Below, in pieces: positions 8,994 through 15,696 of a stretch of DNA of 64,000 bases. The translations under genes and the position numbers were made by a program. Position 1 is the stretch's first letter; every line of letters begins with the position of its first letter. The stretch is from Anaerolineales bacterium. GTDB taxonomy: Bacteria; Chloroflexota; Anaerolineae; Anaerolineales; UBA6668. Where the stretch lies: contig JAHDIM010000001.1 in assembly GCA_020630805.1 (NCBI GenBank), positions 5,887 to 69,886 on the forward strand, written 5' to 3'. Below the pieces are notes generated by a model. That model searched no databases and was not told the origin of the DNA. It saw nothing but the letters and a program-made list of their open reading frames with translations.

Positions 8994-9035
8994 CCCATTT
9001 GTAGTGACATGGCTTGCCATGTCACTACAAATGGG
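8994..9035. repeat. Perfect 20-bp-arm palindrome in the hisI-hisE spacer (copy 1 of TTGTAGTGACNTGGC family)
   Basis: CCCATTTGTAGTGACATGGC, then tt, then GCCATGTCACTACAAATGGG. There is no U-tract. Confidence 0.9.
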
Positions 9036-12931: not shown

Positions 12932-12947
12932 AAAATTTTGTTGCCCT

Positions 12948-12981
12948 ATTGTAGTGACCTGGCTAGCCAGGTCACTACAAT
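12948..12981. repeat. Perfect 34-nt palindrome in the hisC-hisB junction (copy 2 of TTGTAGTGACNTGGC family)
   Basis: ATTGTAGTGACCTGGCT|AGCCAGGTCACTACAAT. It overlaps the last two sense codons and the stop codon of hisC. Confidence 0.9.
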
Positions 12982-14072
12982 AAGTCTTTCAATACCTCGA
13001 TCAATTTGTCGGTGTGCTCTGGCTTTCCAACCGAAATCCGGATCATATTGCTAACGCCGGGTTTATTGAAATGCCGCACAAGAATGCCATGGTCAGCCAA
13101 CGTTTGTTTCAAATCGGCAGCCTGTTTGTCTCCCGTGACATTACACAGTACAAATGCGGACTGAGTCGGCAACGGTTCCAGATAGTCAATCTCAGATAAC
13201 TTCTGGCTCAGTCGTTCACGTTCATCAATCAGCAATTGTAGGTTCGCTTGGAGATAGTCTAGGTCTTGCAAAGAGGCAATCGCGGCGGCATCTCCGGCCA
13301 CATTGATGTTATAGGGTTGCTTCATTGTCCAAAGATAAGGCATTAGCTCTTTTGGGAAAGCACCATAGCCTACGCGGAGCCCTGCTAGCCCAGCCCATTT
13401 GCTAAATGTCCCTAACACAATTAGATTGTCGTACTCTTCGACCCATGTCATGCGGCTAGCGCCTGGGCCAGCATAATCGACATAGGCTTCGTCTAGCACG
13501 ATTAGAATTGGCATGGACAATAAACGCTTCAAGTCTTTGTCCGAAATCACACCGCCATTTGGATTGTTAGGCGATGTAATGAACATGATCTTAGGACGAT
13601 TTTTGACGACCTGGGCCTGAATTTCATCCAAATCGAGCGAGAAGTCTGCTTTACGCGGGACCGAGATGACAGTGCCAGCATTGATAGCGGTGTCAAACGC
13701 ATACATGCCGAACGTTGGCGGACAATTCAAAATTGCTTCACCAGGTTCAAGAACCAATCGCAAAATGAGATCGATGAGTTCGTCGGCGCCAGCACCGCAC
13801 AGAATCTGGTCAGCGGGAACTTGCAAAAAATCCGCTAGCAAAGCGCGTAGCTTGCGGCTTTCCGGGTCCGGATAGATATGCGGAAACGGCAAGTTCTGTA
13901 CCGCAGCAATGGCTTTGGGGCTTGGACCGTATGGGTTCTCATTCGCATCTAGCTTGATGATGTCGTCAATTGGGCGGCCTAGCTGCTCCGAAAGTACATC
14001 AAACGGCACAATAGGCGTGTAGGGGGCTAGCGTGCGAAAGTGTTCGCGGACAAATTTGCTGGCTGTAATCAT
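12975..14072 (-). CDS. hisC: Histidinol-phosphate aminotransferase
   Basis: 365 aa. [13 protein letters not shown], the PLP-lysine context [16 protein letters not shown], and its position in the operon. Confidence 0.92.
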
Positions 14073-15082
14073 TAGCGCTGAGTTGGGTTGGCAAGCTCGG
14101 CTTGCAGTTCAGTGAAGCTAGCAGGTGCTTCCTCAAAAATGTACGTAATTGGCATCACCACTACACCAGTTGTGCCAATAGCGCGCAGTTGTTTGACGGC
14201 AGTGGCAATTTTGGGCTTCGGCACAATCACCTCAATTGCGTATGTATTGTTTGAATTTTGTCGGTCAACGACACGGGCGACCGTTGGGCCAGTGAGGCCG
14301 CCAACATCCGTTTTTTCAAAAAGAAGTTGTCCAATTGTCTCTGGTGAGTCGCCCCGAATATTGCCAATGAGGTGGTAGAACCCTTTCGCACGTAGATTAG
14401 CTTCCGTAAGCTCAAGCAATGTATTGGCGACAGCAAGTACAGCTTCATCTTTCAAGTTTTCGCGACTACCAATCAAGCAGGCTTGTGAGTTTAGAATACA
14501 ACCGCCGCTAATTGTTTTCATGCGATTGTCTTTCAAGGTTTGCCCAGACGACACTAGATCCACAATAAAATCTGCATAACCGAGTTCAGGCGCGATTTCT
14601 AAGGTGCCTTCAGGCGCAATTAGCTTGCAAGCATCAAGGTTGTTTTCTGCAAGAAAGCGCTGCGTGAGCACTGGGAACTTACTTGCTAAACGTGGTTCTG
14701 AAATTGATTTCAGATGTGCGCCTAAGTCAGCAACGGTGTCTACATCTGTCCAAGTTTCGGGCACGGCCAACTCTAGTCGACAACTTCCAAAGCCAAGAGC
14801 TGGGTGCATAACGACAACTTTTTGCTTCTCGCCACGATATTCTTCGGCAATGTCTAATCCTGTAATGCCAAAGTCTAGGCTGCCGCTGCGAACGCCGACA
14901 ACAATATCACCAGCGCGTTGAAAAACGACCTGTACGTTTGGCAACGCAGGCATCGTGGCAATATATTGACGTGAGTTGGGTTTGTATACGCTTAGTCCAC
15001 ACTGCTCTAAGAAACTGAGGGCAGAGTCGCGCAGTCGCCCCTTGCTAGGAATACCAATTCGAATTGTGTTTCGGTCACTCAT
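14072..15082 (-). CDS. hisG: ATP phosphoribosyltransferase, long form with C-terminal regulatory domain
   Basis: 336 aa. IRIGIPSKGRL, DIVVGVRSGSLDFGITGLD, DLVSSGQTLKDN, and a HisG_C-like tail. The stop overlaps the hisC ATG. Confidence 0.92.
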   Translation of the reverse strand: MSDRNTIRIGIPSKGRLRDSALSFLEQCGLSVYKPNSRQYIATMPALPNVQVVFQRAGDIVVGVRSGSLDFGITGLDIAEEYRGEKQKVVVMHPALGFGSCRLELAVPETWTDVDTVADLGAHLKSISEPRLASKFPVLTQRFLAENNLDACKLIAPEGTLEIAPELGYADFIVDLVSSGQTLKDNRMKTISGGCILNSQACLIGSRENLKDEAVLAVANTLLELTEANLRAKGFYHLIGNIRGDSPETIGQLLFEKTDVGGLTGPTVARVVDRQNSNNTYAIEVIVPKPKIATAVKQLRAIGTTGVVVMPITYIFEEAPASFTELQAELANPTQR

Positions 15083-15091
15083 AAGTTATTC

Positions 15092-15125
15092 AAATAAAAA
15101 ACCCACTCTCGGATGAAAGTGGGTT
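15092..15125 (-). terminator. Attenuator terminator in the his leader
   Basis: Minus-strand RNA is AACCCACUUU-CAUCCG-AGAGUGGGUU followed by UUUUAUUU. It ends about 9 nt before the hisG ATG. Confidence 0.85.
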
Positions 15126-15180
15126 CAGTTACATTTCCTGTGGCTATGTTGAAATAGCCCGCCGCATCCGTTTGCCGTCG

Positions 15181-15222
15181 TCAAAAACTATGATGATGGT
15201 GATGGTGCGTTGTGTTGCTCAT
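15181..15222 (-). CDS. hisL: Histidine operon leader peptide MSNTTHHHHHHSF
   Basis: ATG AGC AAC ACA ACG CAC CAT CAC CAT CAT CAT AGT TTT TGA has six consecutive His codons. It sits between the promoter and the terminator hairpin upstream of hisG. The symbol is by analogy with enteric hisL. Confidence 0.8.
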   Translation of the reverse strand: MSNTTHHHHHHSF

Positions 15223-15228
15223 GCGCAA

Positions 15229-15257
15229 ATAATAGCACACTCACATTGCTCTTGTCA
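15229..15257 (-). promoter_or_regulatory. his operon promoter (TGACAA - 17 nt - TGcTATTAT)
   Basis: On the minus strand the -35 is at 15257-15252 and the extended -10 TGc + TATTAT is at 15237-15229. The hexamer ends 6 nt before the leader ATG. Confidence 0.65.
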
Positions 15258-15291
15258 GTTGCGCTCGGCCTAATGAAACCCAAGTTTATTT

Positions 15292-15696
15292 GTGCTAAAC
15301 TCCCCACTTATGACTGCTCTAATTCCTATCTACACTGGTCTCTACAATACTGCGCTTCTGTTCTCAGCATTTATGGCGATTTGGAGTTTTTGGCTTTGGT
15401 TCCGTCGGGAAGAGCTGAACTCTAATTTCTGGGGCGCGTTGGTGATCAATGCGCTATTGCTCATTGTGCAACTTGTACTTGGGGGCCTGATGTATTTCAA
15501 CGGGATTGCCGCAGAACGCTGGGTGCATTACTTATACGACATCATGATGGCCATTACAATCCCAGCGATTTTTGCCTACACGCGTGGGCGTAGTAGCTAT
15601 CAAGAAGGGCTTGTGTACGCTGTGGCGCTATTTTTTGTTTGGGGCTTAGTGCTGCGAGCAGTTATTACAGGCGGGGGGCTATTGCCTGCCGCGTAA
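15292..15696 (+). CDS. Small integral membrane protein, unknown function
   Basis: 134 aa with four hydrophobic helices. The start is uncertain (GTG 15292 or ATG 15310). Confidence 0.55.
   Translation: MLNSPLMTALIPIYTGLYNTALLFSAFMAIWSFWLWFRREELNSNFWGALVINALLLIVQLVLGGLMYFNGIAAERWVHYLYDIMMAITIPAIFAYTRGRSSYQEGLVYAVALFFVWGLVLRAVITGGGLLPAA

Follow-up and report, generated by a model that had tools for sequence, protein, structure and literature searches.

In a 64-kb stretch of an Anaerolineales bacterium genome (64,000 nucleotides (nt) of contig JAHDIM010000001.1, hereafter the window), the his operon is very probably preceded by a ribosome-mediated leader-peptide transcription attenuator, as judged from sequence analysis. 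The leader open reading frame (ORF), the promoter and the terminator that would make up this attenuator exist and are conserved across Anaerolineae, with constraints on both coding frame and geometry, as computational comparison shows. An earlier sequence-only reading of this DNA had proposed a His leader peptide and a terminator/antiterminator switch before hisG in a non-proteobacterial genome, and this core is supported by relatives that carry the mini-ORF, the terminator and the same geometry.

The leader element and its conservation

All parts of the element lie on the minus strand. The -35 hexamer TGACAA (15257-15252) and the extended -10 element TGcTATTAT (15237-15229, with the hexamer TATTAT at 15234-15229) are separated by a 17-nt spacer in direct reading. 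A consensus scan independently recovered the same sigma-70-type promoter (10 of 12 matches, TG present), reading the -35 hexamer as CTGACA at 15258-15253 with an 18-nt spacer. Six nucleotides (ttgcgc) lie between the -10 hexamer and the leader ATG at 15222, which opens an ORF of 13 codons plus UGA (MSNTTHHHHHHSF; 15222-15181, UGA at 15183-15181) upstream of hisG. Six of the 13 codons are consecutive His codons (CAC CAU CAC CAU CAU CAU, 15207-15190), the putative sensor and candidate region 1, which occupy nt 16-33 when the A of the leader AUG is counted as nt 1 (window coordinate = 15223 - n). Region 2 (CGGAUGCGGCGGG, 15170-15158, nt 53-65) is, by folds and a duplex test, the predicted 5' strand of an antiterminator, with the His-codon region as its alternative partner, and a local hairpin in the fold (GGCUAU-UUCAAC-AUAGCC, 15159-15142) overlaps G64-G65 of region 2. 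Region 3 (GAACCCACUUUCAUCCG, 15126-15110) comprises the 5' arm and loop of the terminator, and its CCC (nt 100-102) and CAUCCG (nt 108-113) are predicted to pair with region 2. The intrinsic terminator itself has a 12-bp stem (15126-15099, -17.1 kcal/mol) and a 4-nt loop followed by UUUUUUAUUU; the U-tract ends at 15092, 9 nt before the hisG ATG (15082), and 16 nt separate the end of the stem from the hisG AUG. The promoter, the 13-codon ORF with its six His codons, region 2, the local hairpin, the terminator and the hisG ATG had all been placed at these positions by the sequence-only reading, and direct reading bore them out, with the terminator, like the promoter, also recovered by the independent consensus scan.

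The 140-nt leader folds at -37 kcal/mol, with a z value of -3.45 computed against dinucleotide shuffles. On both strands of the 64 kb, a run of at least six CAY codons occurs at this position only (about 1.2e-4 expected). A strict scan of the window (good promoter, start codon 5-11 nt past the -10, ORF of 6-45 codons, then a terminator) returned this site alone, and no further attenuator-like leaderless mini-ORF was found by it. On the basis of these three results, a chance origin was excluded. The frame of the leader remains open beyond its UGA to hisG in the window and in the related locus L001, but locus L002 has a UAG two codons later, and in-frame readthrough of the leader UGA was therefore rejected as a coincidence.

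A HisG protein search returned hundreds of Anaerolineae/Chloroflexi matches at 50-60% identity, and the closest relatives among species-representative genomes were two metagenome-assembled genomes (MAGs) of Anaerolineales bacteria (92% and 79% identity). With HisG relatives that are Anaerolineales/Anaerolineae MAGs, the remark in the earlier reading that the window does not look proteobacterial is correct. A set of 80 metagenomic loci was collected by HisG alignment, so that the choice of loci is independent of the presence of a leader, and mini-ORFs were counted over the 74 of them that have 300 nt or more of sequence before hisG. The upstream regions of hisG in relatives had been proposed as a check by the sequence-only reading, and they turned out to carry a His mini-ORF in 52 of 74 loci (ATG start, at least three His per seven residues, within 300 nt upstream of hisG on the sense strand), a terminator with a strong hairpin and U-tract in 61 of 63 leaders, and the promoter-ATG geometry in 58 of 61 loci. 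The same mini-ORF criterion was satisfied in 1/74 cases on the antisense strand, in 0/63 downstream and in 1/84 within hisG; upstream of hisG, His was alone among the amino acids in showing such an enrichment pattern. When GTG and TTG starts and distances up to 450 nt were also accepted, 11 of the 74 loci were left with no His mini-ORF. Furthermore, His accounts for 19% of leader codons in frame 0, compared with 1.8% and 3.6% in the other two frames (63 relatives), with CAT used 204 times and CAC 99 times. The distance from terminator to hisG ranges from 15 to 234 nt across the family.

In L001 and L002, the leader peptides are MSNKTHHHHHHSF and MNTTLHHTHHHIK, respectively. Both loci have a -10 box of the form TGnTAT.AT, whose end is 7 nt from the ATG, and the same terminator downstream. 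The His runs of the window and L001 differ at two wobble positions and nowhere else, and in the L002 terminator a U-A pair is replaced by a compensated C-G pair. Leader ORFs span 13-34 codons; most members have 26-34 codons (for example MNNLSAQKHHHHHIQPPHGREVYVRVP), which places the window in a short-ORF minority, and outside the His run the peptide is poorly conserved between subgroups. The cultured species Anaerolinea thermolimosa also has a member, with the arrangement TTGACA-17-TGgTAAGAT-7 nt-ATG, the peptide MQFNISLRHHHTSLPPA and a terminator. Additionally, a sequence-only profile with no base pairs (R1) was made from 15 Anaerolineae leaders, to the exclusion of the window and its two close relatives. 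Its one significant match in the window covers 15216-15093 and nearly the full length of the model (positions 13-129; 12.9 bits, E about 0.005 by a rough calibration); the second-best match had E = 1.5.

Two related loci with no His leader were also inspected. L084, whose HisG (60% identity) is the closest after those of L001 and L002, has a stand-alone hisG adjoining an opposite-strand PAS sensor kinase gene, and a terminator-like hairpin (CACCCAC..GUGGGUG) with a U-run lies upstream of hisG at 1440-1475. No His mini-ORF was found upstream of the L084 hisG, so the locus was of no use for extending the window-type alignment; the hairpin may be a degenerate attenuator or another form of control. 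L003 (Chloroflexi MAG J111, HisG 48% identity) carries short tandem repeats at 1740-1830, made of cgtaatttcgtaatttcgtg and atacgaat units.

Promoter position and predicted leaderless transcription

In the 58 loci with the promoter-ATG geometry, 6-11 nt lie between the end of the best -10 element and the leader ATG, most often 10 nt, with 6-7 nt in the window, L001 and L002. Promoter scores of at least 9 were obtained at 55 of 61 leaders, compared with 15 of 496 random ATGs (3%), which showed no positional preference. A -35 element of the TTGACA/TTGCCA type occurs at the equivalent position in relatives, and most of the loci displayed have the TGn extension of the -10. Counting from the -10 of the window, the seventh nucleotide, the canonical +1, is the A of the leader AUG (15222). 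Transcription is thus predicted to start at 15222, apparently yielding a leaderless transcript, and a 5' untranslated region (UTR) of 2-4 nt is expected for the commonest spacing in the family.

SD-like 4-mers (matching the Shine-Dalgarno (SD) motif) were found at none of 62 leader ATGs but at 60 of 63 hisG starts, against 8.9% of random positions in windows of equal size. The clade therefore uses SD motifs for hisG, while the leader ORF abuts the promoter. The window is SD-poor, with an SD-like 4-mer at any candidate start in 18 of 58 long ORFs; a missing SD is weak evidence in such a setting, and the argument for leaderless transcription was therefore rested on the conserved position of the -10. 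In this way, the leaderless transcript put forward by the sequence-only reading gains from the -10 position and little from the absent SD on which it had also relied. Its description of leaderless translation as an unusual combination for an attenuator was overstated, because leaderless leader peptides are on record in several other bacteria. Most of the eight mapped leader peptides of Streptomyces lividans are leaderless (trpL, ilvL, leuL and others), several of them with Rho-independent terminators; leaderless trpE, leuA, ilvB and aroF leaders have been reported in Corynebacterium glutamicum; and 14 leaderless leader peptides were predicted from mapped transcription starts in Deinococcus deserti. 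Judged from promoter placement across the loci, the predicted leaderless arrangement is real as a conserved design, with precedent in other Terrabacteria.

A GC-rich spacer of 10 nt between -10 and ATG, gccgcccaac, is conserved in many long-ORF relatives (e.g., L018, L024, L030 and L031). Such conservation is unexpected if the spacer is mostly untranscribed, and it may reflect a discriminator element or a transcription start a few nucleotides earlier than assumed. Elsewhere in the window, a -10-like hexamer lies 5-10 nt before the first start codon of several first-in-unit ORFs (30095, 30845, 35573, 49501, 52328, 43526 and 63681). The strict leaderless threshold was passed by 5 of 58 window ORFs, of which two (14953 and 18917) lie well inside ORFs and are probably false. 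Such placements hint that this organism makes common use of leaderless mRNAs.

Antiterminator pairing, the high-histidine step and rival explanations

When the His codons were masked as if by a stalled ribosome and the RNA was folded up to the terminator loop, the antiterminator was the minimum free energy (MFE) fold in the window, L001 and L002 (-15.0, -15.0 and -13.1 kcal/mol; -18.2 kcal/mol in the window with C53:G113 included). Its helices pair 54-58 GGAUG with 108-112 CAUCC (plus C53:G113), 60-61 with 104-105 (GG:CU) and 63-65 GGG with 100-102 CCC. In these folds the pairing is mutually exclusive with the terminator and is available when the ribosome stalls on the His codons. Locus L004 has the GGCGGGCUA motif and a CCCAC-type terminator in common with them and shows the same architecture, in which two compensatory double changes (GGAUG:CAUCC to GGACA:UGUCC) keep the antiterminator. 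The GGAUG:CAUCC plus GGG:CCC pairing proposed in the earlier reading thus emerged as the predicted fold in all three leaders and is compensated in the fourth. The local hairpin GGCUAU/AUAGCC, which the same reading had cast as a competitor of this pairing, is present in the window and L001 but not conserved in L002, and was rejected as a conserved competitor.

In the MAFFT alignment, the 6-nt terminator loop of L004 falls one column out of register with the 4-nt loop of the window, and RNAalifold returned no consensus pairs for leader alignment A5. Per-sequence folds and an alignment-free comparison of cognate and non-cognate duplexes were therefore used. Across the family, pre-terminator RNA has a mean z of -2.1 against shuffles, and 72% of terminator 5'-arm nucleotides are paired upstream, compared with 46% in shuffles. 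Duplexes between region 2 and the terminator arm average -17.2 kcal/mol for cognate and -12.3 kcal/mol for non-cognate pairs, and in 75% of the 60 loci compared the cognate pair is among the best 10%; the corresponding energies in the window are -12.3 and -8.4 kcal/mol (9th percentile). By these energies, the predicted antiterminator strand covaries with the terminator arm across loci, and the modelled antiterminator has good support across the family and reasonable support in the window.

The attenuator would operate as follows. RNA polymerase would start at, or a few nucleotides from, the A of the leader AUG (15222), so that a 70S ribosome could load on the 5'-terminal AUG with no Shine-Dalgarno motif. 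When His-tRNA is scarce, the ribosome would stall on the six His codons and leave region 2 free to pair with CCC and CAUCCG of region 3 once the terminator 5' arm and loop emerge; with the antiterminator formed, the terminator could not form and polymerase would read through into hisGCBHAF-HAD-hisIE. When His-tRNA is plentiful, the 13 codons would be read fast, the antiterminator would be blocked, and the 12-bp hairpin and U-tract would form, stopping transcription 9 nt before hisG. The most likely block is that the ribosome terminates at a weak-context UGA-C and abuts region 2, and that after its release the His-codon region re-pairs with GGAUGCGGC.

How the antiterminator is blocked depends on the position of the stop codon. 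In every one of the 45 long-ORF relatives, as also in L004 and L005, region 2 is covered once a ribosome sits at the stop, and the L004 antiterminator then collapses from -13.0 to -3.5 kcal/mol; in these models, the logic of the long-ORF relatives, L004 and L005 is of the classical trp type. The UGA of the window, L001 and L002 lies 15 nt upstream of the stop position of L004. In the naked window leader, the MFE fold holds a region 1:2 helix, formed by GAUG..GCG with CAUC of the His codons and the CGC that precedes them. Partition functions of naked RNA place the GGAUG core in this helix with P = 0.75 in the window, 0.80 in L002 and 0.40 in L001, and L002 shows one apparent compensation (CGCAUC/GAUGCG to UGCAUC/GAUGCA). 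A stop codon followed by C is the weakest termination context in E. coli. The leader stop is followed by C in 33 of 63 loci (UAAC 12, UGAC 11, UAGC 10), with UGAC in the window, L001 and L002; this signal is confounded, as the C is often part of region 2. The attenuation logic of the sequence-only reading thus stands on its stall side, where the antiterminator is supported, but it had said nothing on the high-histidine block, which is the weak point in the short-ORF variant. We infer that this block would consist of ribosome release followed by 1:2 re-pairing, steric occlusion at the UGA-C stop, or both.

Several points weigh against an attenuator of this kind. The transcription start, translation of the leader ORF, the terminated short RNA and the response to histidine are all predicted. 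The related loci share kinship and are not phylogenetically independent, and some are duplicated (L034 = L042). The shuffles behind the family pre-terminator, region 1:2 capture and trio (window, L001, L002) partition-function results were mononucleotide or codon-order shuffles and did not preserve dinucleotides. Within this genome the missing leader SD is uninformative, since the window is SD-poor and its own hisG has none. Taken alone, the window gives a modest antiterminator signal (z = -1.04; rank 0.09). About 10 nt separate the stop codon from region 2 in the trio; a ribosome positioned at the UGA would shield the RNA as far as about nt 52, and with region 2 running from nt 53 the antiterminator of the window stays at -15.0 kcal/mol. 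Shuffled leaders match the 1:2 helix probabilities of the trio in 6-33% of trials, which is not significant, and family-wide capture of region 2 by region 1 is at shuffle level (0.446 versus 0.441); 1:2 pairing was accordingly rejected as a family-wide feature. If histidine is nevertheless sensed, the high-histidine decision of the short-ORF variant would be something other than a ribosome covering region 2, and, with obligatory 70S loading at the 5' end, the element would be a minimal attenuator that fuses promoter, start codon and sensor, with kinetics unlike the enteric paradigm. We hold this to be a tentative possibility, for which the candidates are timed release at the weak UGA-C combined with re-pairing of the His codons to GGAUG, or a steric block at the mRNA entry channel.

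The closest competing explanation keeps the His attenuator and gives up the leaderless transcript: transcription would start further upstream, or the promoter would be misassigned, and the leader would be translated by SD-independent internal initiation (e.g., through S1 on an A/U-rich region). Initiation of this kind must exist in this organism, because just 18 of 58 window genes have an SD-like motif and hisG has none; the transcription start is predicted from sequence; and a -10 that ends at a distance of 9-10 nt from the ATG, as in most relatives, predicts a 5' UTR of 2-4 nt and not a strict 5'-AUG. However, less than 90 nt remain up to a divergent ATG (15310), and the promoter described here is the only minus-strand promoter-like site within them. 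High-scoring -35/-10 pairs at 6-11 nt in 58/61 loci, with 3% of random ATGs as good, and a spacing in the trio of 6-7 nt, which places +1 on or beside the A of the AUG, make this explanation unlikely. An action on hisG translation or mRNA stability is quite improbable. Mycobacterial poly-Cys leaderless upstream ORFs (uORFs) do act by freeing a sequestered ribosome-binding site (RBS), and a stem that ends 16 nt before the hisG AUG could influence initiation at an SD-less hisG, but the hairpin excludes the hisG start region, a canonical intrinsic terminator with U-tract is present in 61/63 loci, and a hairpin-hisG distance of 15-234 nt does not fit a conserved RBS-sequestering role.

The remaining explanations dispense with sensing by the leader ORF or with control of the operon. 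That a chance mini-ORF sits by an ordinary structured 5' UTR or terminator, or that the peptide or short RNA acts in trans and does not regulate the operon, is very improbable. The part of the literature consulted on Sinorhizobium does describe trans-acting attenuator products (peTrpL and rnTrpL), and an extra trans role here would be compatible with the results. However, about 1e-4 such His runs are expected per window, and His enrichment is specific to frame, to the sense strand and to the region upstream of hisG; poor conservation of the peptide outside the His run and ORF lengths of 13-34 codons favour a purely sensory ORF over a functional peptide. It is hardly credible that another RNA sensor (a His T-box, a riboswitch or a protein-dependent attenuator) operates here with the His codons incidental. 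T-boxes and HisR do control his genes in other Terrabacteria, but a 140-nt leader is too short for a T-box, and no relevant Rfam family was matched at gathering score in the whole window or in 20 related loci. In the 401-nt region 15000-15400, RF00514 was unmatched even at E <= 10, as it was at gathering score in the window and the 20 loci, and the weak Rfam matches at E <= 10 there were rejected as terminator-like chance matches. A ribosome-mediated attenuator of the his operon thus remains the favoured explanation.

The his operon, known systems and meaning

The operon that the attenuator would regulate, hisG-hisC-hisB-hisH-hisA-hisF-HAD-hisI-hisE, extends from 15082 to 8677 on the minus strand, beginning with a long-form hisG (15082-14072, minus strand). 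No convincing internal terminator was found on its coding strand. In both the window and L001, hisG starts 9-16 nt past the terminator and has no SD-like motif (gaauaacuuAUG; window 15083-15098, L001 1986-2002), and the hisG of L002 has one, as do 60/63 related hisG starts. The gene hisD is not in the his operon of the window, unlike in Anaerolinea thermolimosa (L086), where the gene order is hisG-hisD-hisC. The HAD-family phosphatase encoded between hisF and hisI may be a candidate histidinol-phosphate phosphatase. Two perfect palindromes share the core TTGTAGTGAC.TGGC, one in the hisI-hisE spacer (8994-9035; 20-bp arms, 2-nt gap) and one in the hisC-hisB spacer (12947-12982; 18-bp arms, gapless). 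They are the sole copies in the 64 kb, and the palindrome is absent from 87 related loci, L001 and L002 included. They could be a genome-specific element of the repetitive extragenic palindrome (REP) type, a hairpin for RNA processing or stability, or an operator.

On the plus strand, a divergent gene begins at ATG 15310 (ORF to 15696); TGcTAAACT and 8 nt precede the ATG within 15293-15312, with no SD. It had no Pfam or NCBIfam match, and its ATG and the TGcTAAACT-type arrangement are kept in L001 and L002. Judging by this arrangement, its transcript is probably leaderless too, arising back to back with that of the his promoter.

Attenuation by a His leader peptide is established for enterobacteria; predicted cases come from other Gammaproteobacteria and from the B. 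cereus group, Peptostreptococcaceae and Erysipelotrichales. Like hisL of E. coli and Salmonella (RF00514), the element has a His-codon ORF directly upstream of hisG (seven His in the enteric leader, six here), an intrinsic terminator with a mutually exclusive upstream pairing through which the His-tRNA supply sets readthrough (predicted here), and a His-codon stretch able to pair with the next segment. Unlike hisL, it resides in a Chloroflexota host and not in Gammaproteobacteria, has no detectable RNA homology to RF00514, and has its -10 box 6 nt from the AUG, while the enteric leader carries an SD within its 5' UTR. The enteric A-F model involves a relay of hairpins between leader and terminator. 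The arrangement here is simpler, as region 2 would pair directly with the terminator arm and loop.

Similarly, the leaderless attenuators of Actinobacteria and Deinococcus, hosts that belong to Terrabacteria as does Chloroflexota, have an SD-less leader ORF at the 5' end of the transcript, with many codons for the amino acid under control, and hairpins and often a U-tract downstream. Transcription starts were mapped there and are predicted here, and the list of Streptomyces leader peptides has no histidine member. The His leaders of Firmicutes (B. cereus group, Peptostreptococcaceae, Erysipelotrichales) are alike in having 3-5 His codons and a terminator/antiterminator and in leaving RF00514 unmatched; they belong to another phylum, leaderless geometry is unreported for them, and the comparison was made by description, not by sequence. 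The mycobacterial poly-Cys leaderless ORFs (the 'Cys ribulon') also combine a sensory uORF with a stalled ribosome that remodels downstream RNA, but they sense cysteine and unmask an RBS, thereby controlling translation, whereas a canonical terminator is found here. In a literature coverage that is incomplete, we found no published report of a his attenuator in Chloroflexi or Anaerolineae; nor was a leaderless histidine leader peptide found described in that coverage, which did not include the Deinococcus list of 14.

The mechanism is a textbook one, and the understanding of attenuation is unchanged by it. Judged from the collected leaders, the element represents in effect a new class-wide family, matching no Rfam family, within a well-known kind of regulator. 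The approximately 60 collected loci are a possible seed for a new RNA family and for better annotation upstream of hisG in Anaerolineae MAGs. The member in cultured Anaerolinea thermolimosa makes the prediction experimentally accessible, and leader ORFs that naturally stop after anything from 13 to 34 codons provide a ready series on the contribution of the terminating ribosome to attenuation. Few leaderless genes have been predicted in Chloroflexi (about 4.7% in 4 of 12 genomes); the conserved joining of promoter to start codon speaks strongly, if indirectly, for working leaderless translation in a phylum predicted to be poor in it. With this element, Chloroflexota (class Anaerolineae) joins the lineages with leader-peptide attenuation of histidine biosynthesis, and, given how widely the element is conserved in the class, leaderless attenuation could be an ancestral design of Terrabacteria and not an actinobacterial peculiarity.

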